Positions 2,003-49,054 of a DNA stretch of 57,222 nt are shown here, piece after piece (within the stretch, counting starts at the first letter, position 1; each line of letters begins with the position of its first letter). The translations under genes and the position numbers were made by a program. The stretch covers positions 1-57,222 of the forward strand of contig JAUWWC010000003.1 of the NCBI GenBank assembly GCA_030617105.1, written 5' to 3'. Below the pieces are notes generated by a model that saw only the letters and a list, made by a program, of their open reading frames with translations, was not told the origin of the DNA and did not search any database. Source of the DNA: Candidatus Nealsonbacteria bacterium (GTDB lineage: Bacteria > Patescibacteriota > Minisyncoccia > Minisyncoccales > GWA2-38-27).

Positions 2003-2044
2003 TATTTTATTCTATTCCATTTTCCGCATTTGGTCAAAATAAAA

Positions 2045-2068
2045 AAGCCTGCGAATGCCTTGCAGGCT
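2045..2068 (-). terminator. Intrinsic terminator of the 2067-2336 cassette
   Basis: agcctgc...gcaggct inverted repeat followed by a T-run on the minus strand. Confidence 0.6.
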
Positions 2069-2336
2069 ATGTTGAAATTAGAAGTCCTATGGCTCGTGAA
2101 GGAGGTCCTTCATGTTTTTTATGCCGACAAACAATTACATGAGACGCCTTTAAGTGAAAGAGGCTATGTACTAAGGGCCGCTCTGGAACAATTATTTGTT
2201 CCCATTCAGTATTGCAATGACGGCACTTTCGGAATGTTCCATCCATTACCATACGTATGCTCTGTTTTGGCGAAGGATGAGGCCTAGTGATTCTTCCACA
2301 TATCCTACACTCAATAACGAACGGTGTAAATATCAT
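2067..2336 (-). CDS. Hypothetical zinc-ribbon protein
   Basis: CRIC and CRHC pairs; AGGAG SD; TTGACA at 2399-2404; downstream hairpin. Confidence 0.7.
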   Translation of the reverse strand: MIFTPFVIECRICGRITRPHPSPKQSIRMVMDGTFRKCRHCNTEWEQIIVPERPLVHSLFHLKASHVIVCRHKKHEGPPSRAIGLLIST

Positions 2337-2400
2337 ATCAGTCTCCTATTTATATAAATGTAAATGTGCACCTATCTTTATATCACATCTCTTTTTATTG

Positions 2401-3771
2401 TCAAGGTCTTAAGATTTCTGGTTTCTTTTTGGTGAGGTTAATTACAAGTGAAGGAGTGCTTTTCGGCAAGTTGCCAGCATTCAGAATTAAATCTGGTTTA
2501 GTTTCGTGTTCCTCAAACTGCTCTAAAATTTCCTGAATTTTGAGCAAAGGGCCTTTACCAGCAATATTAGCTGAAGTACTTGTTAATGGCTTTTTTATTT
2601 TCTTAATTATTTCATTAACCAACTTATAATCTGGAATTCTCAAACCAATTGTCTCTTCCCTGCCAAATAATATTTTTGATAAACCGCACCTCTCCTTTCT
2701 TTTTAAAACCACTGTTATTTTCCCTGGCCAAACTTCTCGTAAAAAGTGTTCCTGTTTTTCATCTATTATTGCTAACTTCTTTGCCATTTCAATGTCTTTG
2801 ACAAAAATAGGGATTGGTTTTTTCTTATCTCTTCCTTTTATTGCAAAAATCTTCTCTATTGCTTTATCATTAGCAGCATCAGCTAAGAGACCATAGACAG
2901 TGTCTGTGGGGGAAACTATGACCTGTCCCCTTTCAAGATATTCTACTGATTTCTTAACCACATCTCTTGCCCGATAAGACATAAGCTCAAAATGCCTGTG
3001 CTGCCAGAAAAGCTTTTTAAACTTTTTAAAAGACCTTAAAAAATAAGAGACCTTTATTATATCTGCTGGATTGCCAAAATCAAGCCAAAAATCTTGAATC
3101 TTCTGAATTTTCATCTTCTTTTCTCTGGCTAAAAGGTTTATAGCATCAGTAATTTCATATTCACCTCTGGGAGATTTGGTAATTTTGCTAATCTTTCCAA
3201 AAACATCAGAAGTAAATTTGTAAAGTCCAGCATTAACTATATTTCCAATAAACTCTTTTGGCTTCTCAACAACTTTCTTTAAAAGTCCGTTATCTTCAAC
3301 AAGAACGCCGTACTTTTCAGGATTTTTGTGATAAATCCCAGCAACATAGCTGTATTTCCCTTTAATATTTATTGCTTTCAAATCTCTTACTGAATAAAGA
3401 TTATCTCCGCAAAGATAAAGAAATTGGCTTTTTCCAACAATATCTTTTACGCATTTTAAAGGACAGGCCGTGCCATACATTTTATCCTTAGGACCTAAAA
3501 TCTCATACTGGCTCACCATCTTTATTTTATACTGGCTTTTCCTCAAACTCTTCAGAGGCGGATTATATGTTTTTAAAAATTCCTCTACTAACTCTTCTTT
3601 AAAACCAGTCACTAAAATTAAATCTCTATAACCTGCTAAAAAAAGATTATCTAACAAATATGCTAAAAAGGGTCTTTTCTTGACCCTAATAAGGTGCTTG
3701 GATTTTTCTTTAGTAAGATGAAGCATACGGGTCCCTTGACCCGCTGCTGCAATAACTACTTTTTTAACCAT
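2401..3771 (-). CDS. tsaC: Fusion of a sugar-nucleotidyltransferase domain and a TsaC/Sua5 threonylcarbamoyl-AMP synthase domain
   Basis: N-terminal AAGQGTRM...EKP...RGEYEITD; C-terminal PTDTVYGL, KGR...KP and STSAN motifs. Confidence 0.88.
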   Translation of the reverse strand: MVKKVVIAAAGQGTRMLHLTKEKSKHLIRVKKRPFLAYLLDNLFLAGYRDLILVTGFKEELVEEFLKTYNPPLKSLRKSQYKIKMVSQYEILGPKDKMYGTACPLKCVKDIVGKSQFLYLCGDNLYSVRDLKAINIKGKYSYVAGIYHKNPEKYGVLVEDNGLLKKVVEKPKEFIGNIVNAGLYKFTSDVFGKISKITKSPRGEYEITDAINLLAREKKMKIQKIQDFWLDFGNPADIIKVSYFLRSFKKFKKLFWQHRHFELMSYRARDVVKKSVEYLERGQVIVSPTDTVYGLLADAANDKAIEKIFAIKGRDKKKPIPIFVKDIEMAKKLAIIDEKQEHFLREVWPGKITVVLKRKERCGLSKILFGREETIGLRIPDYKLVNEIIKKIKKPLTSTSANIAGKGPLLKIQEILEQFEEHETKPDLILNAGNLPKSTPSLVINLTKKKPEILRP

Positions 3772-4348
3772 GTTTAAAGCCAGGCTTTGCTGCTAATTCA
3801 AAGGCTTTTTTGTTTAAGTCAAGGTATTTTTCAGGGACAATTTTAGTAATGGCTTTTAAAATTGAATTGGGCTTCAGAGGAATTAATTTTTTATGAACTG
3901 CGTAACTTAAAAGATAAATTCCTGAAACCACTTCTTTGCCTAATTCTTTCTGGCAAATTTCAGAAGCAGGAATTATTTTAGGGTTTTTTGTTATGGTTTT
4001 CAATTTTCTTAAAATCTCTTTTTCTTTAGGACTACCAGGAAAAGAAAGCGTAAATTTATTAACTAAAAAGATAGTCTTTGAATTAGCATAAAAGAACGCT
4101 CTTAAACTCTCCAAAGTTTCCAAGCCCAAAATTAAATCAGCTGAACCCAAAGCAACTAATGGAGAATATACCTTTTCCCCAAACCTTATATGGGTCTCCA
4201 CTTCACCTCCTCGTTGAGATAATCCGTGCAATTCGGACGTCTTTATATCATACACCTCAATTAAAGCTGCCTCAGCTATAATCTGGGTTAATGTAATCAA
4301 TCCTTGTCCTCCAGTTCCTGAAATAATTATATTAAAAGTTTCTGGCAT
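3764..4348 (-). CDS. iorB: Indolepyruvate ferredoxin oxidoreductase beta subunit
   Basis: GTGGQG, SELHGLSQRGG and N..AF motifs; follows iorA. Confidence 0.9.
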   Translation of the reverse strand: MPETFNIIISGTGGQGLITLTQIIAEAALIEVYDIKTSELHGLSQRGGEVETHIRFGEKVYSPLVALGSADLILGLETLESLRAFFYANSKTIFLVNKFTLSFPGSPKEKEILRKLKTITKNPKIIPASEICQKELGKEVVSGIYLLSYAVHKKLIPLKPNSILKAITKIVPEKYLDLNKKAFELAAKPGFKHG

Positions 4349-9138: not shown

Positions 9139-9194
9139 AATACTATCTTACCTCTTTTTTTGTTTCAATTTCAAGTATTAAAAAAGGGATGGCA

Positions 9195-9857
9195 TTAAAC
9201 CACCCCTAACAAGTTTTGAGTTCTTTGGAACAAATTAATTGCCTGATTTTTACTAAATTCTCTGTCTGATTTAACGACTCTTAAAAATTCCATAACTTCT
9301 TTAAGCAGGGGCTCTCCCTTCTCCACCAATAAATGAGCAAAAGTAATTGGAAGAAATTCAGGGTTGCTTTGGTAATAGTTAGCGAATTCATGATAACTAC
9401 AAGCAAAGGAAAGATGAATTAAGGCAGAAGATAAATTGCGCTTATTTCCCTTTTGGTCATAAATTTCCAGACGGTTGAAGGCATTTTTTAATCTTTGCTG
9501 GGCTTTTTGCTGAAGAAACTGAATTGCTTCTGCTGATACTGGTAAAAACAATATAGTGTTACTTCTTAGTTCGCTAAATTCTACTTTTTTTGTTTTATCA
9601 TCTGACAATAATAAACCAGTTATAATAGGGTCAGTGATTATGGGGTCAAACAGTTTCCGTCTTCTTTCAAATTCGCCCTTACCAATCATCAAAATATCTA
9701 ATCTTGACGGCTCATAAAGACGAGCTTTGGTTTCTCTTTCTAATACAGCCAATAAATCAATGTCATCACCTAGCCAATCGCCATATCGTATCAGAAACTT
9801 AATATCTTTTGGATTGATTTTTCCATTTACTCTCTGAATAATCTCTCTTTTATTCAT
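9195..9857 (-). CDS. Hypothetical protein, possible minimal nucleotidyltransferase plus helical domain
   Basis: YGDWLGDDIDLLAV resembles the hG(S)..DxD motif; AAGGAG SD; TTGACA-17-TAAAGT promoter with -35 at 9942-9947. Confidence 0.65.
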   Translation of the reverse strand: MNKREIIQRVNGKINPKDIKFLIRYGDWLGDDIDLLAVLERETKARLYEPSRLDILMIGKGEFERRRKLFDPIITDPIITGLLLSDDKTKKVEFSELRSNTILFLPVSAEAIQFLQQKAQQRLKNAFNRLEIYDQKGNKRNLSSALIHLSFACSYHEFANYYQSNPEFLPITFAHLLVEKGEPLLKEVMEFLRVVKSDREFSKNQAINLFQRTQNLLGVV

Positions 9858-9991
9858 CTTATTATCTCCTTGTTATTTGTCCAATTATACAATTTTAAAG
9901 AAACTGTTCTTCTAACATACTTTACCAAACTCATAAACTTCTGTCAAGAAAAAAAGCGCCTCACAAAAAATGAAGCGCATTTCAATGATTT

Positions 9992-10123
9992 CTATTTTTT
10001 TAACTTCCGTCTTCTCAGCTTCCCTCGACCGCAAACCATACATCTGCCCCTTTGACTAGTTAAAGTTTTCTTTCCCCCGCATTGCATACTATGACAAGGC
10101 GTTCTCTTGTTCTTACGTCCCAT
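9992..10123 (-). CDS. 43-aa basic four-Cys micro-protein, not in the ORF track
   Basis: Hand translation MGRKNKRTPCHSMQCGGKKTLTSQRGRCMVCGRGKLRRRKLKK; GAAAGGG SD; TTGACA-17-TAAATT promoter with -35 at 10207-10212. Confidence 0.65.
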   Translation of the reverse strand: MGRKNKRTPCHSMQCGGKKTLTSQRGRCMVCGRGKLRRRKLKK

Positions 10124-10212
10124 CTAAAGGCCCTTTCAATAATATTTGTTAAACAAATTGAATTTTAAAAAAACAATAATTTTAATTTAATGCAAATTAG
10201 AATTTTTGTCAA

Positions 10213-11736
10213 TTAAATTTTGGGGAATAATAGCTTTTCTTTTTTGATTCTTGTTCCAGATTTAATATTAGTCCAGCTGTCTTTGTAATTTGGGTTTTTA
10301 CCCAATAATTTCTCAATTTTTAAAGATTTGGCAATTTCTAAAGCAGTATCAGGTATAAAAATATAAACTTGCCAAGCAAGTTGATGAAGAGCATCTAATA
10401 GACCATATAATACCCAATTTAATTCTTCCTTTTTTCCTTCTTTGGCCAGTTGCCAAGGTTTATTTTTCTCAATATATTTATCAGCTTCACTAATAAATTT
10501 CCAGATAGAAGACAAAGCTTCATTGAACTGATAATTATTCAAATATTTATCTAAATCCTGCCAGGCCTTTTTCCAATTATAAATTTTCTCATCAACTCTT
10601 AAAGCATGGCTGTCTGGATTCTTATCTATTTTTGGAACCTTACTATCACAATATTTCTCAGCCATTGTTAAAACCCTTGCTACTAAATTCCCAATTCCTG
10701 ATGCTAAATCAGAATTATATCTTTGCTCAAACTTTTCATAGGTAAAATCACCATCCTCAGTTGAGGGGATCTCCCGTAAAAGAAAATACCTAACAGCATC
10801 TGTTCCATATTTTTTAACAAGCTCAAAGGGATCAATCACATTGCCCAATGACTTAGACATCTTCTGCCCATCAACAGTTATAAAGCCGTGAGCAAAAATC
10901 TTCTTTGGCAAAGGCAGTCCTAAAGACAATAATAAACTCCCCCAAATTACACTATGGTGCCAAAGTATGTCTTTTCCAATAACATGAACATCTGCTGGCC
11001 AAAATTTTCTAAATTTATCATTTGGATAACTAATGGTTGTTAAGTAATTTATTAAAGCGTCCACCCAAACGGACAATGTCAATTTCTTATCAAACGGAAG
11101 TGGAACTCCCCACTCAACTGTTTTTCTAGAAATACTTAAATCCCGCAAGGGTTCTTTCAATCGGTTTAAAATCTCACTTCTTCTGCTTTCTGGAATAACG
11201 AAATTTTTGTTCTCTTGAATATACTTCAAAAGTTGTCTCTGATATTTACTCATCCTGAAAAAGTAAGTCTCTTCTTCAATCGTTTCCAGGGCTTTACGAT
11301 GTACAGGGCATTTATTATCCACTAAATCTTTTGGCAAATAAAAACTTTCGCAATCTACACAATATAAACCTTTATATTTCCCTTTGTAGATACCACCTTT
11401 TTTGTATATCTTTTTGATAAGCTCTTGAACAACTTTTATATGTCTTTTTTCTGTAGTTCTAATAAAATCATCGTTGGAAATATTCAATACTTTACATAAA
11501 TCTCTAAAGTACTTACTTGTTTCATCTACAAATTCCTGAGGTTTTTTGTTCGCTTTTTGCGCATATCTCTGAATTTTTTGGCCATGCTCGTCCAGCCCGG
11601 TGCTGAAATGCACATCAAAACCCTGCAATCTTTTATATCGCGCTAAAACATCAGCCTGAACTTTCTCCAAGGCATGGCCGAGATGCGGCTTCTCCGAGGG
11701 ATAATCTATGGCCGTAGAAATATAAAACTTTTTCAT
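10213..11736 (-). CDS. metG: Methionine-tRNA ligase, short form
   Basis: PHLGH, DEHGQKI, zinc knuckle, GKDI and KMSKSLGN motifs. Confidence 0.97.
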   Translation of the reverse strand: MKKFYISTAIDYPSEKPHLGHALEKVQADVLARYKRLQGFDVHFSTGLDEHGQKIQRYAQKANKKPQEFVDETSKYFRDLCKVLNISNDDFIRTTEKRHIKVVQELIKKIYKKGGIYKGKYKGLYCVDCESFYLPKDLVDNKCPVHRKALETIEEETYFFRMSKYQRQLLKYIQENKNFVIPESRRSEILNRLKEPLRDLSISRKTVEWGVPLPFDKKLTLSVWVDALINYLTTISYPNDKFRKFWPADVHVIGKDILWHHSVIWGSLLLSLGLPLPKKIFAHGFITVDGQKMSKSLGNVIDPFELVKKYGTDAVRYFLLREIPSTEDGDFTYEKFEQRYNSDLASGIGNLVARVLTMAEKYCDSKVPKIDKNPDSHALRVDEKIYNWKKAWQDLDKYLNNYQFNEALSSIWKFISEADKYIEKNKPWQLAKEGKKEELNWVLYGLLDALHQLAWQVYIFIPDTALEIAKSLKIEKLLGKNPNYKDSWTNIKSGTRIKKEKLLFPKI

Positions 11737-15367: not shown

Positions 15368-15410
15368 TAGTTTATTCTAACTTATTTTCCCAAAAACAAA
15401 AAGGGCTGGA

Positions 15411-15624: not shown

Positions 15625-16227
15625 TCAAAAACCTCCTTTCGGTTTTCTTAAAGACCAAATTCCAACTACAAAATGTAGTAAAAAACAATTAATTGGATAA
15701 AACAACATATAAGCGCCTTTCCATTCGAGAAATACAGCAATCAGATGAAATATATAAGCTGCGCTAAAGATAAACCAAGGCAATGGGTTTTGCTCGTTTT
15801 CGGGATTCTTCCATAATCCACGGTAAGTGGGTATAAAAGAAATCGCAATACTGGGTTGCAAAATCAAATTAGCATAAATAGCGCCAGTCCTAGTAAAACG
15901 ATACCGCCACCAAACAAGAAGAGCGATAATGCCTAAAACTAAAGCAATATCATCCCAAAAATCTAATTTAGAGAAATTGCCCCTAAATAAACATCGGAAA
16001 AACACTAGAATACAAGCAATAGTGCTAACAGTAGGCAATATTGCTAAAGGCCAATGCTCGCCCATTATAAAATAGCTGACACAGTTTGAGCTAGAGATAA
16101 AAACCCATAACAACCAAGTAGCTTTTCTAGGACAAGAAATACCAAGAACTGCCTGTTTGTTATATCTGTAAAATGCTACAACATGCATTAAGCCAGCAGT
16201 AACTCCTAATATCACTTCGATAGTCAT
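15625..16227 (-). CDS. Hypothetical multi-pass membrane protein; start reassigned to MTIEVILG
   Basis: 6-7 hydrophobic segments; GGAGG SD and TTGACT-17-TATAAT promoter ahead of ATG 16227. Confidence 0.75.
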   Translation of the reverse strand: MTIEVILGVTAGLMHVVAFYRYNKQAVLGISCPRKATWLLWVFISSSNCVSYFIMGEHWPLAILPTVSTIACILVFFRCLFRGNFSKLDFWDDIALVLGIIALLVWWRYRFTRTGAIYANLILQPSIAISFIPTYRGLWKNPENEQNPLPWFIFSAAYIFHLIAVFLEWKGAYMLFYPINCFLLHFVVGIWSLRKPKGGF

Positions 16228-16344
16228 AAAGCACCTCCATTTCTGTTTTAAAAGAGCCAATCTTTTTTGATAAGTTATTATATTTTCTAAAAAACAAAAA
16301 GTCAAGAAAAAAGTCCTGTTCAGAAAATCCTGACTCAGGACTTA

Positions 16345-16581
16345 TTACAATAATCCAAACCTCTCTTTTTTTCTAACAATGAATGGCTTAAGTTTTTTTC
16401 TATCTTCAAAATGAACACAATGTACAAAATCAGCAAAACAGAATCTCTCAGACCATTTTTTCTGATGAATCTTGCATCCAGTAATTCTTTTTAGATCTCT
16501 AATCTTTTCTTCAATAATATATGTTGCGCAAAATTTAAAAAACAGACATGCTCCACACTCTTTTTCTATATCTTCTTTCAT
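16345..16581 (-). CDS. Small Cys-rich hypothetical protein; start MKEDIEKE
   Basis: GAGGTG SD before ATG 16581; CGAC...C...C motif; agtcctg/caggact hairpin downstream. Confidence 0.6.
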   Translation of the reverse strand: MKEDIEKECGACLFFKFCATYIIEEKIRDLKRITGCKIHQKKWSERFCFADFVHCVHFEDRKKLKPFIVRKKERFGLL

Positions 16582-16610
16582 AATCCCACCTCTTTTCTTT
16601 TTTAAAGAAC

Positions 16611-18167
16611 TTATTTTGCAAGCTTTGAAGCTTCGCCTTGAATAAATGATTCTGTCCACTGATCTTCTCCAGTAATTACTGCTTCATTAATAATTGTCTG
16701 GCCAGATGCTAAAGAAACTTGAAAAGAAATGCTCGGTGCTTCATTAAGAATACCTGTTCCTGCTTCCATATCTCCAATCATCCAGACAATTTCTCTGCTT
16801 CCGCTGTCATAAGCAAACTTTGACGATTCGCTTTCAGGGAAAATATTACCAAATAAGTTTACTTCTGAAGGCAAAATTGCTTTTACTTTAACATTTTTAA
16901 CATCGTTGAGATAATTCTTAGCCTGCCAGGTTATAGTATAAATATCACCTTGTTGAGAAGCTTGTTGAGAAATCTCTAATTTTGAATTTACTTTTGTTTC
17001 AAACTCTTCTTTTACCTGAGAAATCAAAATTGTATTCTTTAAAAGAGCATTTCTTTCTTCAAGGCTGCTAATTGCCCAGTCATCTTTGAGATTAATCCAA
17101 AACTCAACTTTTCCTTCTTTGCCCTGGTCTAAAAACTTAAGCTTTGGAACATCTCTCCAATCCCAGATTACAGAATTGTCTCCTGTTTGAAATTGGCCTG
17201 ATTCACTTTTTATTGTATCAAAATCAAATCCATCTCCATCAAGAGTTGCTACTAAAAACAAATCCTTGAATGGCTCTTCGCTAATATTCCTAAAGAAAAC
17301 TTCATAATGAAGCAAATCGCCAGGACTGGCAGTATAATTACTTTGTCCATTTATATGCTGAAAAATAGAAAGCTGGGGCCTGGTAATCTCTACCCCTCTT
17401 GTTATTTCTTTTAAAATAATAAATTCATCATCCTGCCAAACACCAATAGCAGCTTTAAACATTTTCTGTTCTTTAAGTTCTCCAGAAAGATTGCCGCTGA
17501 TTTCAATTCTTCCTCCTTCAGCTTTATTTAAAAGAGAAATCTCCCATTCTGTCTTATCCAAACCCTTAGGGTCACTTGTTAAAAACTCAAAGCCATCAGG
17601 ATACTCAATTCTTATACCTAAATTAGTAAGTGGGTAGTCCAAGCTTGAGAAATAATTTAAAGAAAACTTGAAATCCCTGCCTGCTTCTATTCTTGAGGCA
17701 AGGTCAAAATCAAAAGTCAAAGGAACTGCATCAATTACAGTATTTAATGTAGTGGTTGATTCATAACGTGCTTGTAGGTTTTTCACGCGATAACTCAACC
17801 AGGCCTTAGCTGTCTTCACTTCCCCGTCTCTTCCTAAAAGCCGTCCCTTAAATTGGAAGGTTTTTTCTTCTCCAGGATAAATATCTCCTAATTCCTCAGT
17901 CCCTATTTCTATTCTTCTTGAAACACCCTGTTCTAATAAAGTATATTCTGGGAATTCAAAAATAAGGCGGGGCTCTTCTAATCTAACATCCCCATTATTC
18001 TTATACTTCACTGTATATTCAATTTCCCGTGCAACTGATGCATTTCCAGGACCTAAGATTTCCAATTTCAGAATCTCTTTTGAATAAGGATTTCTCTGCC
18101 AATACCAATAACCAGCTATTCCAAGAATTGCAGCTAAAGCTATAACTAAAATGATAACTTTTCTCAT
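16611..18167 (-). CDS. Membrane-anchored extracellular beta-sandwich repeat protein (DUF11-like)
   Basis: N-terminal TM anchor; repeated Y...Y.N.G Ig-like segments. Confidence 0.7.
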   Translation of the reverse strand: MRKVIILVIALAAILGIAGYWYWQRNPYSKEILKLEILGPGNASVAREIEYTVKYKNNGDVRLEEPRLIFEFPEYTLLEQGVSRRIEIGTEELGDIYPGEEKTFQFKGRLLGRDGEVKTAKAWLSYRVKNLQARYESTTTLNTVIDAVPLTFDFDLASRIEAGRDFKFSLNYFSSLDYPLTNLGIRIEYPDGFEFLTSDPKGLDKTEWEISLLNKAEGGRIEISGNLSGELKEQKMFKAAIGVWQDDEFIILKEITRGVEITRPQLSIFQHINGQSNYTASPGDLLHYEVFFRNISEEPFKDLFLVATLDGDGFDFDTIKSESGQFQTGDNSVIWDWRDVPKLKFLDQGKEGKVEFWINLKDDWAISSLEERNALLKNTILISQVKEEFETKVNSKLEISQQASQQGDIYTITWQAKNYLNDVKNVKVKAILPSEVNLFGNIFPESESSKFAYDSGSREIVWMIGDMEAGTGILNEAPSISFQVSLASGQTIINEAVITGEDQWTESFIQGEASKLAK

Positions 18168-24013: not shown

Positions 24014-24067
24014 CTTACCCTATTTTCTTCAAAAATTCAAAAAACAGAGGCCCGTCCTCCGCAAAAG

Positions 24068-24144
24068 CTTGACAGATTTGAGAATATGCGATAAACTGTA
24101 AATATCGTGAAAAACTAAAATAGCAACTTAAAAATTTGAAAGGA
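24068..24144 (+). repeat. Promoter/leader direct repeat, family 1, copy 1
   Basis: 76/77 identical to 25022-25098; contains TTGACA-17-TAAACT and GAAAGGA. Confidence 0.95.
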
Positions 24145-24155
24145 GGTGCTTTACA

Positions 24156-24961: not shown

Positions 24962-25021
24962 ATATTATTTATTACTAACTATTTTAATTTTATCAAAACC
25001 CAAGAAATAAGTCAATAAAAA

Positions 25022-25098: not shown

Positions 25099-25103
25099 AA
25101 GAA

Positions 25104-25398: not shown

Positions 25399-25422
25399 AT
25401 TGAATTATGATAATATAAAGTA

Positions 25423-28714: not shown

Positions 28715-28821
28715 TTTCTTTCTCCTTTTTTAAAATTCCATTCTTTTAGTTTTCAGTTTTCAACGAACATCTCTGATATTTTTTACTACCATATCTTAAA
28801 AACAAAAACAAGCTAAAATTA

Positions 28822-31179: not shown

Positions 31180-31220
31180 AATTATTTTATTCTACCAAAC
31201 CTTAATTTTTAAATCAAATA

Positions 31221-31264: not shown

Positions 31265-31810
31265 CTACTTCTTTGGCAGAACTTTCTTAAGTTTTTTTGT
31301 ATCCCTGACAATCTCAACTACTTCAGCGGGTTTAACTACAAATTGTTCTTTTTGCCCAATCCTTACTCCCTTAATCCTGCTAGCCATTTCAGGTTCTTTT
31401 AGCATTGCTTCTTTATCCAGCTCTTCTTTAACCCTGATGAAACGTTTGAGTCTGTGACGTTTACATAGTGCTATAACTTTTTTAACATTCCGAAGCGAAA
31501 CAGCAGGTGGATTCAATTGCCAAAAAATACTTCCGGTTAAAAGATCGACTCTTTTTCTCTTACCTCCGTCCGTCAGCATACTACGATGAGCTCGGGCAAA
31601 GACATATATTGATTTAAAAAGTTCATCTATCGTCTCCTGGAGAGGCAAACTTATTTGTACCGCTCGAGTTTTAATTTGTTCTATATCTTCATTAATCCTT
31701 GTCTGAATCTGCTCAAGCTTCCTTTGACACTTTCCTATTTCACTAACAAATAATGAAACTTCTTCAATTGATTTGGGAACTACTATTGGTCTCTTTTTTT
31801 CCTTAGCCAT
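31265..31810 (-). CDS. Mu Gam-like host-nuclease inhibitor
   Basis: N-terminal coiled coil; G.I.W...PP.V; FIR.KEELDKEA.L.....A..I.GV.I...E.F.V.P. Confidence 0.85.
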   Translation of the reverse strand: MAKEKKRPIVVPKSIEEVSLFVSEIGKCQRKLEQIQTRINEDIEQIKTRAVQISLPLQETIDELFKSIYVFARAHRSMLTDGGKRKRVDLLTGSIFWQLNPPAVSLRNVKKVIALCKRHRLKRFIRVKEELDKEAMLKEPEMASRIKGVRIGQKEQFVVKPAEVVEIVRDTKKLKKVLPKK

Positions 31811-31878
31811 CTTTTTCTCCTTTTAAAAGTGCAACATTTTCTCAATTTTACTCAATGTTTGGTTATACCCTAAATCAT

Positions 31879-32607
31879 TTAAAAAAGCAAGTTCTGTAAG
31901 GTTTTTGCGTTTTCAACTGCGTGGCCAAGGGCGTCGTTATTGAAGTATACAAAAACGTCTCTATTTTGTTTTTGCCATTTTTTTATCTTTTTGGCAAGAG
32001 TTTCTAATTCTTTTTTAGTATATTTTGAAGAGAATAAAACTTTAGAGCCATGCATTCTAATATAGACAAAATCAGCAGTCAGTTCCTCGGCTTTAGGATA
32101 AGAAGGAGAATCAGCAATTACCCAGGCAGCATTGTATTTTTTTAATAAATTATAAATCTTTTGCTTGCACCAAGTCTCATGCCTGAATTCAAAAGCAACA
32201 GAGACCGGGTCTCTGATAAACTTTAAAAACTTTTCTAATCTTTTAATATTCTCATCACTTGCTTTAAAATTCGGAGGAAACTGAAATAAAATTGGACCAA
32301 GTTTTTCTTTAAGATTTAAAGCGTTCTTAATAAATACTTTCCAGGCAGCATTAACACCCTTTAATCTTTTAATATGAGTAATAAAACGGCTGGCTTTGAC
32401 AGAGAATAAAAAATCCCCAGGAGTCTGGGAATACCAATCCTTATAAATAGCTGGTTTTGGCAAACGATAAAAAGAATAGTTTACTTCAGTAGTTTTAAAA
32501 TGCTGAGAAAAGTATTTTAATTTATATTTAGAACTTAAGCTTTTAGGATAAAAAACTTGTTCCCAATGAGGATAAACCCAACCAGATGTACCAATATATA
32601 TTGCCAT
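31879..32607 (-). CDS. DUF72 family protein
   Basis: IGTSGW.Y..W, EVN.SFY, LFQFPP, EFRH..W, YIRMHG and YFNND motifs. Confidence 0.93.
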   Translation of the reverse strand: MAIYIGTSGWVYPHWEQVFYPKSLSSKYKLKYFSQHFKTTEVNYSFYRLPKPAIYKDWYSQTPGDFLFSVKASRFITHIKRLKGVNAAWKVFIKNALNLKEKLGPILFQFPPNFKASDENIKRLEKFLKFIRDPVSVAFEFRHETWCKQKIYNLLKKYNAAWVIADSPSYPKAEELTADFVYIRMHGSKVLFSSKYTKKELETLAKKIKKWQKQNRDVFVYFNNDALGHAVENAKTLQNLLF

Positions 32608-33251: not shown

Positions 33252-33325
33252 GTTTATACTATAACTATTATTATTTAAAAAAACAACCCCACCAAGGCGG
33301 AGCTGTTTTAATCACTAACTAATAA

Positions 33326-33796
33326 TTAGCTATATTTTATCTTCTTAATCTTATAAACTGTTTTTATTGGAGAGGAAACAACAACTTCATCTCCAGTTTT
33401 GTGGCCTAAAAGAGCTACTCCAACTGGCGACTCATTGCTAATCCTGCCTAACGAGGGATTAGCTTCAAGCGTCCCTACAATTGTGAATTCGTCTCTCTCT
33501 CCATCTACTTTTACTTTAACTGTTGCTCCTAAATTAATCATTTTTGATTCTTTTTTAGAAGGGGGCTTAATCAGAAAAGCATTTTTTAAAATATTTTCAA
33601 GCTCAGCTATCCTTGTTTCAAGAAAACTCAAATCTTCTTGAAAAGAAAGATACTCAGGATTTAAATCCTCTGATTCCCATATCTTTGGAGCCTCCCCTTT
33701 AGTCTTAGCAGCTCTAAGATTCTTCAGGGTTTGGTGCTCTTTTTTGAAGTTCTCTAATCCTTTTTTTGTTAAATAGAATTTTTTTCTTTCTGTCAT
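33326..33796 (-). CDS. greA: GreA/GreB family elongation factor
   Basis: YLT..G, RIAELE.IL, IVG..EA.P..G.IS.ESPVG.ALLG. Confidence 0.88.
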   Translation of the reverse strand: MTERKKFYLTKKGLENFKKEHQTLKNLRAAKTKGEAPKIWESEDLNPEYLSFQEDLSFLETRIAELENILKNAFLIKPPSKKESKMINLGATVKVKVDGERDEFTIVGTLEANPSLGRISNESPVGVALLGHKTGDEVVVSSPIKTVYKIKKIKYS

Positions 33797-33976
33797 ATTT
33801 TTGCCTCCTTTATTTCATTTTAGTTTTTTTAAATAATGTGTCAATAGCTGTTTAATAAAACTAACTAATATAGGTTTTTTAGTTTACTTTTTAAAGTTTT
33901 CCACAAGTATATATTATTGTATTCCAGCCAACTGTTTTGTCAAGAGCCAAGCACTGTGGAAAACTCATGCAAAACA

Positions 33977-34019: not shown

Positions 34020-34964
34020 TTAAAGAAAGTACTCGCACTCATTACATCTTTCCTCGCAAATACACTTTTTAGATTTACCAAAAATAGATAATAAGTGTCC
34101 TTTTGGTATAATTGGCAATTCCCCTATATCAGCCTCAATGTTTCTTATTCCTGACTCAGACCTTAATTGTTTTGCTATAAGGTTATTTATTCTTTTCAAA
34201 CTTGGAGAAACTATGCCTATGATTAAATTTTGGTGATGACCAGAAGGAAATCTTACTAAGTTATAAACTAAGGGGCAATTTTCAAATTTCTTTGTTAGTT
34301 TAGAAATAACCTTGGAAGGAGCTTCAACCCCAATAGTAGCACTTACTGAATAAAATTTCTCAATATTTAATAATCCCTGAATTATTAACATATCATTCTC
34401 AATTAATTTCTCAACCCTTTTTTTAACGCCAACTGAGGTTAATCCTGTCTTTTTAGCAATATCTACAAAGCTTTTTCTTCCATCCTGAGACAGGGCTTTA
34501 ATTATCTCAAAGTCAATCTCATCTAAAGCTGCTAAACTCCAAGAACTAGGAGCAGGGTAATCTTCAACTGAGAAATCAGCTACTTTCATCCTATCACACA
34601 AAACAGCAAACTTTATATCTTTTATCTTTAACTTCTCTTTCTTTTCTCGCATAAGCCCCATAACTATCCTATAGGCCTTGCCAGTAACAATATCGTTGTC
34701 AACTAATAAAACCTTTCTTCCTTTGACTTTGTCTTGTTCCAATCCTTTTCCATAATCATCCATTGTAAAAAAAGTGATATCTTTCTTTTTCTGAGATAAC
34801 CACTTATAAAGACCTTCTCCATAAAAAACGCCATCGTCTTCCAAGCCAATGACACATGCTTTATCCTTTCCAAAATACCTCTCTACATTTTTCCCTATCC
34901 CATTAATAAACTTCTTGATTGGCTTAAGAGTTAAAAGAGTATTTTTCTGCATATTTTTTAACAT
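34020..34964 (-). CDS. PRTase-like domain fused to an Lrp/AsnC regulator
   Basis: VLLVDNDIVTG (PRPP-loop-like); LDEID..II..L..DGR.S...IAK HTH; Cys-rich tail. Confidence 0.8.
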   Translation of the reverse strand: MLKNMQKNTLLTLKPIKKFINGIGKNVERYFGKDKACVIGLEDDGVFYGEGLYKWLSQKKKDITFFTMDDYGKGLEQDKVKGRKVLLVDNDIVTGKAYRIVMGLMREKKEKLKIKDIKFAVLCDRMKVADFSVEDYPAPSSWSLAALDEIDFEIIKALSQDGRKSFVDIAKKTGLTSVGVKKRVEKLIENDMLIIQGLLNIEKFYSVSATIGVEAPSKVISKLTKKFENCPLVYNLVRFPSGHHQNLIIGIVSPSLKRINNLIAKQLRSESGIRNIEADIGELPIIPKGHLLSIFGKSKKCICEERCNECEYFL

Positions 34965-35808
34965 AATGTTTTATTAACTTATCACGTAGTTCAGGAGTTG
35001 AAGTAGCAATTAGTAAATCTACCTTGGCATGCTGTCTGCCAGGAATAAATTGGTAATCCTGGTAACTGCCATCTGAATCAACACTAACGACCTGGCAACC
35101 AGCTTTCTTAGCAATTGGAAAACCGGGGTCTATTTCTGAACGAGGTTCATTAAACATTACATAGGCATCAATTAGGCCTGAAGCAAGAAAAGCATAGATA
35201 TATGAACCGCCATGGGGATAGAAAAGCCCTTTAGGATGCATATTTCTTACTAAATCCCCGAAAATATCAAGAAACTTTGCAGAATATTGAGAACTCATTA
35301 TGTAACTGGATAAAACAATAGGTTCTGTTAGTTTTTTCCTGACACCAGGTTTAACTTTCTTTTTGTGCTCTCCATTCATTGAAACTAAATAATTTCCATC
35401 TTCTTCAGTGATATAATATTTATCATTAACAATATCAGCGATACCGCAGCATAAAGGGTTTCTCTTTTTGTCAAAGAAACTTAGGGCTGTATACCAATTA
35501 TGTTCAAATCCCCGAAGGTAAAGCATTGAACCATCAAAAGGATCAACTGAACCGTAAATTTCTCCTCCGTTTTTAATATCTCTATCTTCTGGCTCAGAAA
35601 AAATAGTTGCTTTTACTTTATGCTCTTTTAGAAGCTTTTCTAAAATATCTTCTCCTACTCTGTCAATCCCAATTTCAAGGTCTTCTGGCCTGTTTATTGT
35701 TTCACCCAAAACCTGCCTGCCTTTGTCTTGGTTAGCCATTTTTTTCACTTCTTGAGTCGTCTCAACTAAATACTCAACTAACAACTTTTTTAAATCTTGC
35801 CTTTGCAT
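34924..35808 (-). CDS. Inositol monophosphatase/FBPase family protein
   Basis: ID...E, IFSE and VDPFDGS motifs. Confidence 0.82.
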   Translation of the reverse strand: MQRQDLKKLLVEYLVETTQEVKKMANQDKGRQVLGETINRPEDLEIGIDRVGEDILEKLLKEHKVKATIFSEPEDRDIKNGGEIYGSVDPFDGSMLYLRGFEHNWYTALSFFDKKRNPLCCGIADIVNDKYYITEEDGNYLVSMNGEHKKKVKPGVRKKLTEPIVLSSYIMSSQYSAKFLDIFGDLVRNMHPKGLFYPHGGSYIYAFLASGLIDAYVMFNEPRSEIDPGFPIAKKAGCQVVSVDSDGSYQDYQFIPGRQHAKVDLLIATSTPELRDKLIKHYVKKYAEKYSFNS

Positions 35809-37987: not shown

Positions 37988-38293
37988 TTAAACAAGGCTT
38001 AAAAATAAAGCTCGCTCAAACTCTTCTAGGCTGCAATTGATCTTTACTTCCACTGGATCCGATATGTGAGAATCTATCGAGACTGAATTCTCTTGGTAAT
38101 CAATGGTAATAGTTATTTTTTCTTCTCCTAATTCATAAACAACTTCCTCTTTTTTGTTTGTTAAAACGTCCTTAAGCGCCAGTTTTGGGATGCTCCTGAA
38201 TTTTGTTTCGATACCCATGACGCAAAACCTAAAACGAATCATAGAGTCTATGTCAACACGTCGAGTTCCATTTTGTTGATCTCTTACTATCAT
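37988..38293 (-). CDS. Hypothetical protein; start MIVRDQQ
   Basis: AAGGAG SD within the repeated leader precedes ATG 38293. Confidence 0.7.
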   Translation of the reverse strand: MIVRDQQNGTRRVDIDSMIRFRFCVMGIETKFRSIPKLALKDVLTNKKEEVVYELGEEKITITIDYQENSVSIDSHISDPVEVKINCSLEEFERALFLSLV

Positions 38294-38298
38294 TTCTG

Positions 38299-38391
38299 AT
38301 CTCCTTTTATTAAATTTTGAAATTACATTACATACAGCAACGCACTGCAATGTTTATACACTATCACACATCCCTGCTCCTGTCAAGCCCA
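38299..38391 (-). repeat. Promoter/leader direct repeat, family 2, copy A
   Basis: 85/93 identical to 39695-39787; TTGACA-17-TAGTGT and AAGGAG. Confidence 0.93.
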
Positions 38392-38801
38392 GTTTGATTT
38401 TCGGGAGTAATTTCGATAGTACCTTTAGAATGTATAAATTTAACTCTAAACAAATTAAAAAATCCTTTTTGTCCTAAAATCCCAAATCCATGAGGGCTAA
38501 TCTCGTAAGAAAAACCAGCCATAATATTATAGCGCCAGCCACCAATCTCAAGGGTTAAATTATGAAGATAAACTTCAAACGGCTCTCCAGCTATCCCGCT
38601 GAATTCCATTTTCTTCCCAGAACGAATATCAATACCAAAAAGCTCTCCAATTTCCGCATTAAAGATATTAAAATCAGCTCCTGAATCAATTAATGCCTCA
38701 TATTTAATTATTCTTCCATTATATAAAAGCCCAATCGGAATGATTGGCTTTAATAATTCTGTGCCATCAGCTAATCTAAATTTCTTATAGCCAAAACGCA
38801 T
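38364..38801 (-). CDS. Retropepsin-like (clan AA) aspartyl protease
   Basis: ALIDSGAD catalytic motif and ILG..GFF motif. Confidence 0.85.
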   Translation of the reverse strand: MRFGYKKFRLADGTELLKPIIPIGLLYNGRIIKYEALIDSGADFNIFNAEIGELFGIDIRSGKKMEFSGIAGEPFEVYLHNLTLEIGGWRYNIMAGFSYEISPHGFGILGQKGFFNLFRVKFIHSKGTIEITPENQTGLDRSRDV

Positions 38802-39131: not shown

Positions 39132-39689
39132 CTATTTAATCTTTAGCAATCCTCGCAATTCTGGGATAGACATTTTGTTATAGCCAGCTCTTAAAACAAA
39201 ACTCTGTCTTTCTACGTCAAGTTCCTCTCTTTCTTTTTTGCTCATTGATTCTTCAAATCCTAGGTCGCATCGGAAAAGTCCCTCTCTTATCAATTCACAT
39301 TTTTCTGTACACGCTGAGTAACCGGCCACAAGTTTATCCGTTTCATCTAAAACAATTTCATCTTCTTTCGACCAAGCAGGTATGCAAAAAACTAAAATTT
39401 TAGTTACCTCTCTTGGAATAAAATAATGAGCTGTATTGGGTGGAATAAGTATTAATGTTCCAGCTTTTATTTCATAAACGTTGGCTCCTATAACCAACTT
39501 CCCCTTGCCTTCAATGATAAAATAAAACTCAGTTGTAATTTTATGGTAATGAGAAACACCGGGAGCACTCATTGTAACTAAGGCTGTGCTTGCTTTGTCA
39601 AAATCTTGTTTTGAGCTTAATACTCTAATCTCCCCACAAATATCTTTTATTGGCTGAACTTTCTCAACAGATATCACAATCTCTTCCAT
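39132..39689 (-). CDS. Cupin domain protein
   Basis: HYH...TEFYFIIEG.G...G......PPNTAH. Confidence 0.85.
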   Translation of the reverse strand: MEEIVISVEKVQPIKDICGEIRVLSSKQDFDKASTALVTMSAPGVSHYHKITTEFYFIIEGKGKLVIGANVYEIKAGTLILIPPNTAHYFIPREVTKILVFCIPAWSKEDEIVLDETDKLVAGYSACTEKCELIREGLFRCDLGFEESMSKKEREELDVERQSFVLRAGYNKMSIPELRGLLKIK

Positions 39690-39694
39690 TATTT

Positions 39695-39787
39695 ATCTCC
39701 TTTTATTAAATTTTAAATTTACATTACATACAGCAACGCACTGCAATGTTTATATCCTATCACACATCCCCAGCCCTGTCAAGCCCA
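39695..39787 (-). repeat. Promoter/leader direct repeat, family 2, copy B
   Basis: 85/93 identical to 38299-38391; TTGACA-17-TAGGAT. Confidence 0.93.
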
Positions 39788-39801
39788 AGAAGCTAAGCTC
39801 T

Positions 39802-47388: not shown

Positions 47389-47390
47389 TT

Positions 47391-48368
47391 ATGAAAATAT
47401 TAAGTGGCATCCAACCAACAGGTTCAATACATATAGGGAATTACTTAGGCGCTATTAAGCAATGGGTTGAGCTCCAAGAAAAAAATGAATGCATTTTTTT
47501 CATTGCTGATTTGCATTCTCTAACTATTCCCTACAAACCAGAAGAACTGGCAAAAAATATCATTGAAGCGGCTATTGCCCACTTAGCAGCTGGCATTGAT
47601 CCTCAAAAGAGCATTTTCTTTGTCCAATCAGATATTAAAGAACATACAGAACTTTGTTGGCTTTTAAATACTGTGTGTCCAGTTGGTGAGCTTCAAAGAA
47701 TGACCCAGTATAAAGAAAAGACAAAGCAGTTTAAGAAAAACATTAATGCTGGCCTTTTAGTTTATCCTGTTTTGCAGGCAGCTGATATTTTACTTTACAA
47801 AGCAGAAGGAGTGCCAGTGGGCAAAGACCAGGTCCAGCATATTGAGCTAGCAAGAACAATTGCCAGAAAATTCAATCAGAGATTTGGCAAAGTATTTCCA
47901 GAACCCAAAGCTCTGCTTCCTAAAATAGGAGCTAAAATAATGGCTTTAGACAATCCAAAGCAAAAGATGTCAAAATCATTAGGCCCGCAAAGCTATATTT
48001 CTCTTTTTGAAGATTCAAAAGAAATCAAGAAAAAAATAATGTCAGCTGTTACTGACACTGGCAAAGTAATAAAATACAATCCTAATAGAAAACCAGGAAT
48101 CTCTAATCTTTTAACAATTTACAGTTTGTTCAGTGAAAAACCAATAAAAGAATTAGAAAAGAAATTCAAAGACAAGGGTTATGCTTATTTCAAAAAATCC
48201 CTAACTCAACTCTTAATTGACTCTTTAGAACCTTTTCGCAAGAAAAGAAAAGAACTCCTCTCAAGAGAAGTCTTTGTTAAAGAAACTCTTAAAGTAGGAG
48301 CAAAGCGAGCCCAACCAATTGCCGAATCCACCATTCACGAAACCCGCGCCAAAATGGGCCTCGCCTAA
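47391..48368 (+). CDS. trpS: Tryptophan-tRNA ligase
   Basis: SGIQPTG..HIGNYLGA, YPVLQAADIL, VPVGKDQ and KMSKS motifs. Confidence 0.98.
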   Translation: MKILSGIQPTGSIHIGNYLGAIKQWVELQEKNECIFFIADLHSLTIPYKPEELAKNIIEAAIAHLAAGIDPQKSIFFVQSDIKEHTELCWLLNTVCPVGELQRMTQYKEKTKQFKKNINAGLLVYPVLQAADILLYKAEGVPVGKDQVQHIELARTIARKFNQRFGKVFPEPKALLPKIGAKIMALDNPKQKMSKSLGPQSYISLFEDSKEIKKKIMSAVTDTGKVIKYNPNRKPGISNLLTIYSLFSEKPIKELEKKFKDKGYAYFKKSLTQLLIDSLEPFRKKRKELLSREVFVKETLKVGAKRAQPIAESTIHETRAKMGLA

Positions 48369-48455
48369 TGTATCTAAAAAAAAGCCGCTGCGAAAAATAA
48401 CAGCGGTTTTTAATTTTTACCACCTAGCCTTACTACAAGGAACGCTATTTGCTAA

Positions 48456-48599
48456 CTAATGAAGAGCGACTCCGAAACCAACTCCAAAAAGTAAGGCAAG
48501 AAAAATTGCAAGATAAAGTGAGCCAAACTTTAATCCTATTGGAAACCCAATAACTCCAAATACCAATCCCAACATAGGACCACTATATTTATCTTTCAT
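48456..48599 (-). CDS. 47-aa Gly-rich two-helix membrane peptide, not in the ORF track
   Basis: MKDKYSGPMLGLVFGVIGFPIGLKFGSLYLAIFLALLFGVGFGVALH; TTGACA-16-TATAAT at 48666-48693; GAAAGGG SD. Confidence 0.65.
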   Translation of the reverse strand: MKDKYSGPMLGLVFGVIGFPIGLKFGSLYLAIFLALLFGVGFGVALH

Positions 48600-49054
48600 T
48601 TCTTTCCCTTTCAAATTTTAAAAGACCTTAAATTTCTAATTTTTCACTAAATATCACTATTTATAATTATATTCATTTACTGAATCCTGTCAATAACAAA
48701 AAAAAATGGTAGGTATCCCTTTATGGACAGTAATCCATTTTCTGTGTCCAATTTTCTGTTTTTTTCAAAACAAAAAGCCGTTTAAATGTCTGTCTAAAAA
48801 TAAGCAGGTCAAAAGAAGAACAAACTCTTTTTTCTTACCTTGAATCTATTTTATCTCGCGAGTGGAGAAAAAAGAACCTGAGAGAATCTTCCTAAACTTT
48901 ATCCTCTTACATTAGAAACTGCCTCTCCGTGAGCATTGACTTCGCTGGTGGTAGACAGCAGAACTTACATTAAACGGCTAACTTCCATTTTAAAGATTAT
49001 AAATAATTAGTCAAGTCCCTTTTATAATTGTTTTAAAATTGGTATTATAAAAGA

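Follow-up and report, generated by a model that had tools for sequence, protein, structure and literature searches.

In the group C genomes of GeneMarkS-2, among them Mycobacterium, Streptomyces and Deinococcus, a Pribnow box lies 6-8 nucleotides (nt) from the start of 25-50% of first operon genes and the other genes have a ribosome-binding site (RBS) at the same distance, an arrangement that the available part of the report gives for Actinobacteria and Deinococcus-Thermus (PMC6028130). In the 5' untranslated region of suhB in E. coli and Salmonella, a boxA element stands a few nt upstream of the Shine-Dalgarno (SD) sequence, and loaded Nus factors repress translation; the sections of that study accessible to us give the boxA consensus as GYTCTTTAANA and count 0-7 mRNA boxA sites in each gamma-proteobacterial genome, the majority of them upstream of genes related to translation (Baniulyte et al. 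2017, PMC5725501). The NusB-binding consensus is cited as UGCUCUUUAACA for E. coli and AUGAUCUUUGAAA for B. subtilis (PMC13753749, in the part available). A subgroup of Parcubacteria is described, in the accessible text, as lacking both the anti-SD and uL1 (Tsurumaki et al. 2022, PMC9297842). Here we analyse the gene starts of a 57,222-nt stretch of DNA, the entire contig JAUWWC010000003.1 of a Candidatus Nealsonbacteria bacterium ('the window'), within its genome. Our best reading is that core genes would start independently of SD sequences, either leaderless or by coupling, while a large, scattered accessory pool would rely on a module of promoter, boxA-like element, RBS and terminator.

Genome and gene classes

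The assembly comprises 542,946 bp in 17 contigs, is 96% complete as judged by marker genes and has a GC content of about 35%. Its Pfam annotation is the typical ultra-small gene set of the candidate phyla radiation (CPR), with aminoacyl-tRNA synthetases, GroES/EL, RecA, FtsK and pilin-like proteins, and the organism is an ultra-small, Parcubacteria-type CPR bacterium. A simple codon-score caller, with each start fixed at the first ATG, yielded 607 genes. Among the 602 with 60 nt of upstream sequence, 341 were operon heads and 249 followed a same-strand gene within 20 nt. A first class scheme separated 91 SD-led heads from 124 leaderless-type heads; a widened RBS definition, which adds AAAGG, AAGGA and AAGGG, gave 108 RBS heads, 111 leaderless heads and 122 heads of neither kind, beside 215 coupled genes and 34 coupled genes with a motif. 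The leaderless class is defined by the absence of an RBS motif. Comparisons were made with the fetched parts of a genome of the same genus (G001) and of two other relatives (G007 and G009).

Leaderless-type heads and SD-less followers

SD motifs and -10 spacing were scored genome-wide, as the original prediction for this DNA had proposed, and both layouts exceeded chance. An extended -10 element (TGnTAnnnT) was found at a spacer of 5-9 nt in 42 of the 341 heads, whereas windows of the same width at spacers of 15-49 nt averaged 4.6 (p = 5e-27); for the plain hexamer TAnnnT the count was 115 of the 341 and the average 60 (p = 1e-12). Operon heads also showed a -35-like peak 29-31 nt before the ATG. 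A promoter scan, in which 152 of the 341 heads exceeded the 95th percentile of shuffles, revealed a bimodal distance between the -10 element and the ATG: the element ended 6-11 nt from the ATG in 35 SD-less heads, and 48-65 nt from it in 44 of 56 SD heads. In 99 of the 111 leaderless-type genes there is no in-frame ATG, GTG or TTG between the upstream stop and the ATG, and the leaderless state was kept in 27 of 42 orthologues in G001. With transcription start sites (TSSs) placed from promoter position, the first genes of core operons are probably leaderless.

Genes inside operons start in another manner. Most of the 249 following genes (202) either overlap the upstream stop codon, 41 of them at -4, or lie no more than 5 nt from it, 42 at +1. 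GGAG, GAGG or AGGA precedes 32 of the 249 and 229 of 1935 internal in-frame ATGs, which is no enrichment. Leaderless heads, SD-less followers and leadered RBS heads therefore make three start regimes, and the stop-start coupling of SD-less internal genes is the one that the original prediction had overlooked.

RBS-led heads form a distinct gene pool

At operon heads, GGAG, GAGG or AGGA shows a sharp maximum at spacers 6-9 (56 genes at spacer 7; background 2.35) and is carried by 90 of the 341 heads in total. A purine-rich motif of the Shine-Dalgarno type is thus present 5-10 nt before the start codon. Its consensus over the 108 RBS heads is GAAAGGAGA (G 42%, A 65%, A 73%, A 79%, G, G, A 68%, G 55%, A 57%), and the GG pair lies 10-11 nt before the ATG in 58 of them.

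The genes behind the two layouts differ. In a comparison of the SD-led and leaderless-type heads of the first scheme, with 138 'neither' heads and the coupled genes left aside, a Pfam family (E <= 1e-5) was found for 25 of 91 SD-led and 99 of 124 leaderless-type heads (Fisher p = 1e-14), and for 8 of 51 and 24 of 34, respectively, among proteins of up to 150 amino acids (aa; p = 6e-7). The RBS pool has a higher GC content (0.377 vs 0.339, p = 1e-13), a higher GC at third codon positions (GC3; 0.317 vs 0.258), a lower native codon score (p = 6e-7) and a shorter median length (139.5 vs 227 aa). RBS heads are more often monocistronic (95 of 108, vs 59 of 111 leaderless heads), and only 10 of the 108 have paralogues. 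Searches with tblastn against the fetched 311 kb of the approximately 600-kb same-genus genome (about 52%) returned matches for 14 of 108 RBS heads and 57 of 111 leaderless heads (p = 7e-10); the corresponding numbers were 2 and 29 for the fetched part of G009, and 7 and 32 for that of G007. N-terminal hydrophobic segments failed to separate the classes (35% vs 32%).

The prediction had held that two initiation regimes mark a distinct and probably mobile or stage-specific gene pool, and had named the lack of any statistical difference between the classes as the outcome that would speak against it. Such a lack was not found (Pfam p = 1e-14, GC p = 1e-13, tblastn p = 7e-10): the two layouts and two pools stood up in Pfam content, GC, codon score, length and tblastn matches, and what the prediction lacked was the third regime. 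The cassette pool is accessory and compositionally atypical. Its mobility was not supported: the cassettes are scattered, with 38 adjacent pairs of RBS heads compared with 32.4 +/- 3.8 in shuffles, so that no clustering was seen, and their leaders bear the lineage's own rRNA-type boxA (below). Mobility genes tied to cassettes were not noticed, in the course of work that included no systematic search for integrases, att sites or flanking repeats. Stage-specific use is plausible, and could act through boxA and Nus factors or through CsrA.

A near-identical promoter module (cTTGACAAATTTAAATA..GGGTGTATAAT), with its -35/-10 spacer included, recurs in 17 upstream regions before unrelated small genes of the RBS class. 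The family spans contigs C10, C11, C17, C8 and C1, and four members stand in tandem about 250 nt apart at C11:1252-3117.

A boxA-like element precedes the RBS

Motif discovery on orphan leaders, another of the prediction's proposals, was carried out by expectation maximization (EM) from 40 random seeds, with the part of each of the 108 RBS leaders between -70 and -16 as input. It converged on GTTCTTTAAAAA, with an estimated 72% of leaders occupied; by position the motif reads G, T/A/C, T/A, C, T/A, T, T, A/T/G, A, A/C, A, A. It agrees with the boxA consensus GYTCTTTAANA and is intermediate between the E. coli and B. subtilis NusB-binding sequences. Perfect boxA matches number 17 in the genome, compared with 3-8 in shuffles. 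At 9 bits or more and 8-60 nt before the ATG, the motif occurs in 52 of the 108 RBS heads, on whose leaders the position weight matrix (PWM) was trained, and in 6 of 233 others (p = 2.5e-24); shuffled leaders averaged 1.6 and never exceeded 6. In most cases 15-40 nt separate the end of the motif from the ATG. The three copies of a hairpin leader on contig C5 end in GCACTTTAACAAT or AACCTTAAAAAT plus GAAAGGAGA, and therefore belong to the same counted family.

The rRNA leader of this genome, which lay outside the training set, has its best match (13.1 bits) 40 nt before the 16S start, directly after a hairpin. Motifs of the boxA type stand at comparable places in the rRNA leaders of four relatives (G001, G006, G010 and G013) and read TGTTCTTTAAAAAAT, TGCTCTTTGAAAAAA and GGACTTTAACAATC. 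Applied to three relatives, the PWM found 13 of 62 RBS heads and 7 of 354 others (p = 2e-7). Orthologous leaders show directly that boxA and RBS are retained while the remainder drifts, at protein identities of 45-55%: a GH130 gene and a glycine-zipper gene when compared with G001, and a radical-SAM gene when compared with G007. A composite boxA-RBS-ATG pattern gave 36 matches here and 1 in its built-in control. Most of 150 other genomes were near control, and a few were elevated (15 vs 3, 10 vs 1, 19 vs 4 and 10 vs 0), so that CPR genomes do not generally have the strict pattern.

The recurring leader element is thus probably a boxA, to which Nus factors would bind. Its boxA identity had been overlooked by the prediction, as had the likely lack of a canonical anti-SD. 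Genes for NusB (6e-37) and NusA (1e-29) are present; the Rho RNA-binding domain was not found in the genome. SuhB is a member of the Nus complex in E. coli (PMC4807359), and a gene of its family, inositol monophosphatase, lies in the window at 34924..35808 on the minus strand (weak Pfam match, 1.6e-8); its product may have a role here. Two other interpretations of the leader sequence were discarded. A second -10 box was ruled out by the A-rich end of the motif and its specific G1 and C4, and a hairpin sequestering boxA and RBS was dropped because only 4-bp A/U-rich stems were apparent by eye, without a formal fold. As a separate observation, the 16S gene of nine relatives (L034-L041 and L043) is followed by a conserved trailer of about 150 nt and not by 23S. 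The trailer contains a hairpin and a second boxA-like sequence, CAACT(T/C)TAA(G/A)AA, followed in several relatives by a terminator-like hairpin and in at least three by an apparent next-gene start.

The 16S tail

Inspection of the 16S anti-SD, also proposed with the prediction, could be completed on relatives: all nine readable tails lack CCTCC, and the genome's own tail is unassembled. Rfam models found neither its 16S nor its 23S, and a text search recovered just the 5' approximately 350 nt of 16S. The nine tails come from 12 relatives' 16S loci, since L042, L044 and L045 had no recognisable 3' end in the fetched stretch. After GGATCA, the same-genus tail continues as TCTCATAT..., a reading repeated by two metagenome copies, and family-level tails as TTTCTTTTTT..., TTTCAAAA... 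and TTTAACTTTA... A metagenome scan with the V2 stretch of the genome's own 16S gave 0 matches. A scan with the rRNA-leader stretch gave six loci, none closer than 92.5% to the own fragment, and in the closest long locus (L104, 91%) insertions push the 3' exon beyond the fetched stretch. The 16S genes of the close relatives L104 and L045 have large insertions near the 3' end, one of them with a long open reading frame (ORF) inserted right after AAGTCG; insertions of this kind probably explain why the own 16S is unassembled past its first approximately 350 nt.

uL1 was not found in this genome. Together with the relatives' tails, this suggests that the ribosome of this bacterium probably has no canonical anti-SD. 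Positioned GGAG-type motifs persist all the same before 13% of heads in G001 and G007, with the same consensus. The G007 tail resembles the canonical tail with C-to-U changes, and we infer that G-U wobble pairing with GGAG would survive.

Accessory cassettes in the window

All 12 of the listed accessory cassettes start with ATG and have GGAG, GAGG, AGGA or GAAAGG(G) at a distance of 5-10 nt before it; the plus strand carries those at 24156 and 25104, and the minus strand the other ten. A promoter of the TTGAC-N16-18-TAnnnT type, predicted for most of them, lies 49-66 nt upstream in 8 of the 12, and the terminator predicted as usual, a hairpin with a T-run no more than 90 nt past the stop, was found in 10 of the 12. 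The description as stand-alone holds with the exception of ORF 16581, which does not qualify because its leader sits inside the 3' end of the upstream gene. The leader fragments said to recur between distant cassettes are real. Those at 16227 and 24156 have GGAGGTGCTTT in common, and the fragment common to 25104 and 48599 (TTTAAAATTTGAAAGG in the prediction) is the 3' half of boxA plus the RBS; in addition, 24156 and 25104 have about 55 nt in common, and 38293 and 39689 about 65 nt. The boxA-like motif reaches 9 bits in 9 of the 12.

At the left end of the window, an 89-aa orphan (ORF 2067-2336; cassette 2067..2436, minus strand) has RBS TAGGAGA, the boxA-like GCACATTTACAT (10.7 bits) ending 21 nt before the ATG, and a terminator. 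The 220-aa orphan with ATG at 9857 (9195..9957, minus) has a TTGACA promoter 61 nt upstream, a weak boxA-like GTTTCTTTAAAA (8.0 bits) and RBS AAGGAGA, and its neighbour, a 43-aa ORF with ATG at 10123 (9992..10223, minus), has a TTGACA promoter 60 nt upstream, RBS TTGAAAGGG and a terminator. The 200-aa orphan at 16227 (15625..16327, minus) has TTGACT-17-TATAAT 49 nt upstream, boxA-like GCTCTTTTAAAA (13.3 bits) and RBS GGAGGTG. In the 78-aa ORF at 16581 (16345..16681, minus), GTTCTTTAAAAA itself (13.7 bits) stands 17 nt before the ATG, with RBS AGAGGTGG; the upstream gene whose end contains this leader encodes DUF11.

On the plus strand, the 90-aa orphan at 24156 (24056..24428) has a TTGACA promoter 58 nt upstream, boxA-like GCAACTTAAAAA (10.6 bits), RBS GAAAGGAGGTG and a terminator. 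The 79-aa orphan at 25104 (25004..25343) has a promoter and leader like those of 24156, boxA-like GCAACTTTAAAA (10.1 bits), RBS TTGAAAGGAAAG and a terminator. Between these duplicated cassettes, at 24532-24961, lie a HicA-family toxin gene and its upstream 72-aa partner (DUF7387).

The remaining five are on the minus strand, and each has a terminator. A 481-aa glutamine-amidotransferase-domain gene with ATG at 28714 (27269..28814) has boxA-like GTTCGTTGAAAA (12.0 bits) 42 nt before the ATG and RBS AAAGGAGA, and in a 181-aa Mu Gam-like gene at 31810 (31265..31910) the boxA-like GCACTTTTAAAA (13.2 bits) abuts RBS AAGGAGA. The 101-aa orphan at 38293 (37988..38393) has TTGACA-17-TAGTGT 64 nt upstream, and the 185-aa cupin-domain gene at 39689 (39132..39789), with which its leader is common, has TTGACA-17-TAGGAT 64 nt upstream and boxA-like GTAAATTTAAAA (9.7 bits); the RBS of both is AAAGGAGA. 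A 47-aa ORF at 48599 (48456..48699) has TTGACA-16-TATAAT 66 nt upstream, boxA-like GGTCTTTTAAAA (11.0 bits) and RBS TTGAAAGGGAAAG.

Core genes in the window

Seven core genes had been named as having a -10-like hexamer shortly before the ATG and no SD. The hexamer was confirmed at 6-8 nt for five of them (glyA, tatD, glyQS, the HD gene and the phosphomutase); argS offers only TAGGGT-3 and uvrA only TAATAT-0, and neither fits the leaderless layout. Upstream of glyA (ATG 2002; 2003..2042, minus strand), TTGACC-17-TAGAAT-6-ATG is of the leaderless type, and the SHMT domain begins at residue 3. Before tatD (9139..9178, minus), TAAGAT stands 6 nt from the ATG at 9138 with TTGAAA 18 nt farther up; AGAGG is also present, so that its class is ambiguous. 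glyQS (15368..15407, minus) has TAGAAT 6 nt before the ATG at 15367 and is of the leaderless type. The HD-domain gene (33252..33291, minus) has TATAGT 6 nt before its ATG at 33251. The phosphomutase (ATG 51179, minus) and ychF (ATG 51204, plus) diverge from a gap of 24 nt (51180..51203) with overlapping TATAAT-8 and TACCAT-6, which leaves no space for a leader; the -35 region of each gene lies inside the coding sequence of the other.

Similar layouts precede four genes outside that list. smpB (25383..25422, plus) has TAATAT 6 nt before the ATG at 25423 and is of the leaderless type. An MFS gene (31180..31219, minus) has TGGTAGAAT 9 nt before the ATG at 31179 and may be leaderless or have a leader of 2-3 nt. 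A 199-aa gene (49015..49054, plus) has TGGTATTAT 6 nt before the ATG at 49055. The recA promoter (54116..54155, minus) is TTGACA ... TAAAAT, 6 nt before the ATG at 54115. The claim that core genes lack an SD stands as a statistical tendency; greA, a core gene (ATG 33796; 33326..33840, minus), has TTGACA-17-TAAAAT, a leader of about 20 nt with a strong AAGGAGG, and no boxA (5.9 bits).

Other features of these regions were also recorded. smpB, tmRNA (25865-26188) and infC run head to tail at 25423-26697; the infC ORF has a GTG start at 26188, where the tmRNA match has its final base. Two genes come in pieces: argS as an N-domain gene (23663-24013) plus a catalytic part (22497-23627) for which TTG is the only opening codon, and rplT (26883-27230) as a 61-aa N-part plus a separate 42-aa ORF. 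Frameshifts, assembly errors or genuine splits could each account for this. The last letters of the window (57135-57222) and the first of contig C7 are reverse complements over the 5' end of a pilin-like gene; the match is an assembly break at paralogous pilin 5' ends.

Discussion

The sequence layout, its statistics, the split into gene classes and the retention of boxA and RBS in relatives are observed directly. The explanation that we think probable, although well short of certain, combines leaderless core heads, SD-less coupled followers and a promoter-boxA-RBS accessory module under Nus control. From the DNA alone we infer where transcription starts, that Nus factors bind, in which direction they regulate and what reads the RBS. 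At core heads, a sigma-70 promoter, often with an extended -10 element (TGnTAgAAT), would end 6-9 nt before the ATG; the transcript would begin at the start codon or within about 3 nt of it, and the ribosome would bind the 5' AUG directly. Downstream cistrons would be translated by termination-reinitiation, with a stop that overlaps the next ATG or lies no more than 5 nt away. Some 100-140 mostly monocistronic, small, GC-richer and poorly conserved genes would each have a self-contained module, consisting of a TTGACA-17-TGnTATAAT promoter, 48-65 nt from the end of the -10 element to the ATG, the boxA-like GTTCTTTAAAAA, RBS GAAAGGAGA and usually a terminator.

The boxA of the module would be the element that follows the hairpin in the lineage's rRNA leader. 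When nascent, it may bring NusB-S10, together with NusA, to RNA polymerase in the way seen on the rRNA operon. The 30S subunit would be placed by the RBS at the distance usual for an SD, and the two probably make contact through weak pairing, in part by G-U wobbles, of the RBS with a degenerate 16S tail rich in U. Because Rho was not found and boxA precedes the RBS by 5-25 nt, which is also the case in E. coli suhB, we favour a role of Nus loading in gating translation or elongation. Accessory expression would be tied to the supply of free Nus factors, and hence to rRNA synthesis; the data suggest that the variable genes are under a separate control route. In a bolder version, to which we attach little credence, boxA-loaded Nus/S10 beside a relic SD-like motif, and not SD:anti-SD pairing, would gate or recruit the small subunit in Parcubacteria without an anti-SD, and dozens of fast-evolving genes would form one regulon with an output that follows rRNA synthesis and the supply of Nus factors.

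Several observations weigh against the favoured explanation. All TSSs are deduced from promoter position. The own 16S 3' end is unassembled (only the 5' approximately 350 nt, at the start of contig C10, are available), and the closest relative with a readable tail is only about 85-87% identical over the compared part. The RBS consensus agrees with what selection by a canonical CCUCCUUUC-type tail would produce: with the canonical tail, whose sequence we take to be the standard one, the mean duplex energy is -8.2 kcal/mol, compared with -3.9 (G001) and -5.4 (G007) for those relatives with their own tails, where controls give about -2 kcal/mol and the canonical tail about -7 to -8 kcal/mol. The PWM was trained on the leaders in which it was counted, so that the counts are partly circular; the motif is degenerate and rich in A and T, genes contain 282 of its 410 matches in the genome, and only 52 of 108 leaders reach 9 bits. 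The absence of Rho leaves the classical anti-Rho role of boxA without a target, and the direction of the effect is a guess. The 122 heads of neither class fall outside the scheme, and greA and a few other Pfam-bearing genes are RBS-led, which makes the split statistical and not absolute. The crude first-ATG caller overlooked the small cassettes 2067-2336, 24156-24428 and 9992-10123 and misfiled some genes; the P-type ATPase at C15:12077 was filed as RBS despite TAGAAT-6.

It is also possible, though in our view rather unlikely, that this is an ordinary genome with leaderless and SD-led genes, a canonical anti-SD of its own and plain SD-led cassettes, with the A/U-rich motif farther up serving as a standby or enhancer site of a generic kind and not as a Nus site. 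In sequence and spacing GAAAGGAGA equals a canonical SD, and it pairs best with the canonical tail (-8.2 kcal/mol); RBS-led heads are 2-3 times commoner here than in relatives (26% vs 10-13%), and the same two motifs at 6-8 nt are reported for group C genomes in the available part of PMC6028130. However, none of the nine readable tails in the same order, the same genus included, has CCTCC, and uL1 is missing as in the anti-SD-less subgroup. Moreover, internal operon genes show no SD enrichment, unlike those of group C, and the upstream motif has a specific G1 and C4 and recurs in the rRNA leader after a hairpin. We judge it improbable that the cassettes are recently acquired foreign or mobile genes (from phages, plasmids or other CPR donors) that keep the promoter, SD and terminator of the donor. 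Their higher GC and GC3, lower codon score, short median length and few same-genus homologues would fit such an origin, as would the one Mu Gam-like gene and the 17-member family of near-identical promoter modules before unrelated genes. On the other hand, the leaders carry the boxA type of the lineage's own rRNA leader, the module stands before non-homologous genes (10 of 108 with paralogues), the cassettes are unclustered (38 vs 32.4 +/- 3.8), three orthologous leaders retain boxA and RBS across genera, and the class is kept in all four genus orthologues. No repeats or integrases were seen at cassette borders, which were not searched systematically.

CsrA prefers GGA in leaders. The AAGGA core could accordingly be chiefly a CsrA site, with the small genes forming a CsrA regulon repressed at the start and the spacing reflecting occlusion of the start codon, a scenario that we regard as highly improbable. 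csrA is present (C1:13433-13645, Pfam 1.7e-25), as it is in 11 of 31 relatives including G001 and G007; it is itself RBS-led with two GGA motifs in its leader, and the most conserved RBS positions are A-A-G-G-A. Nevertheless, G009, with no csrA match, has some RBS-led heads with the same consensus, most leaders have one GGA (judged by eye, uncounted) and not the pair usual for a CsrA dimer, and the spacing is that of a canonical SD; CsrA could add a layer of control without being what reads the RBS. Scarcely credible, finally, is an artefact in which AT-rich intergenic DNA and in-frame stops (TAA, TAG) mimic a -10 element at mis-called starts and the classes reflect gene-calling bias. Starts were indeed set to the first ATG, TAnnnT peaks also at spacers 0, 1 and 3 from stop codons, and its background is high (60 of 341 per 5-nt window). 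Yet the extended -10 element is ninefold enriched solely at spacers 5-9, with matching -35 boxes 29-31 nt upstream; Pfam domains begin within the first residues of glyA, tatD, recA and smpB; the state is kept in 27 of 42 G001 orthologues; and the 24-nt divergent gap at 51180-51203 excludes leaders.

A large part of bacterial diversity belongs to the CPR, in which translation start has barely been studied. Core genes that are leaderless or coupled, without a canonical anti-SD, would bear on the annotation of gene starts in thousands of CPR metagenome-assembled genomes, because SD-trained gene callers would misplace starts. If confirmed, the leaders described here would be by far the largest known set of mRNA boxA sites (at least 52, compared with the 0-7 per genome given in the accessible part of the PMC5725501 survey). 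They would also offer a testable handle on the control of accessory genes, a variable pool of host-interaction type, in ultra-small symbionts, and would sharpen the question of what GGAG does where the 16S tail cannot pair canonically. Literature searches for leaderless initiation in CPR, Patescibacteria or Saccharibacteria returned nothing relevant, the term turning up solely in other contexts or in reference lists, supplements such as Table S4 of PMC6028130 lying outside the search, and those for boxA with Patescibacteria or CPR surfaced only microbiome surveys, as judged by title.

The closest described systems each resemble part of this arrangement. As in group C, to the extent of the published text available to us, a -10 box lies close to the starts of first genes and an RBS precedes other genes; in contrast, the internal genes of group C use SD sequences, while here 32 of 249 have one, which is at background. 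Here, too, the classes separate core from accessory genes, and the 16S tails of the lineage lack CCUCC. The relatives' tails without CCTCC(T) and the failure to find uL1 recall the anti-SD-less subgroup of Parcubacteria, although gene starts in such genomes, or a persisting positioned GGAG-type motif, are not treated in the accessible part of PMC9297842. With suhB, as portrayed in the available sections, these leaders have in common an rRNA-type boxA just upstream of an SD-like motif in an mRNA leader. The differences are that at least 52 leaders are concerned here, mostly before orphan genes, and that Rho, which executes the transcription effect at suhB, was not found. Finally, the motif is the same as that of the antitermination site of rrn leaders (NusB-S10, NusA, NusG and SuhB; PMC13753749, in the part available; PMC4807359), and the order of hairpin and then boxA is found in the rRNA leaders of this genome and its relatives; in contrast to that site, the element here is copied onto dozens of protein-coding leaders.

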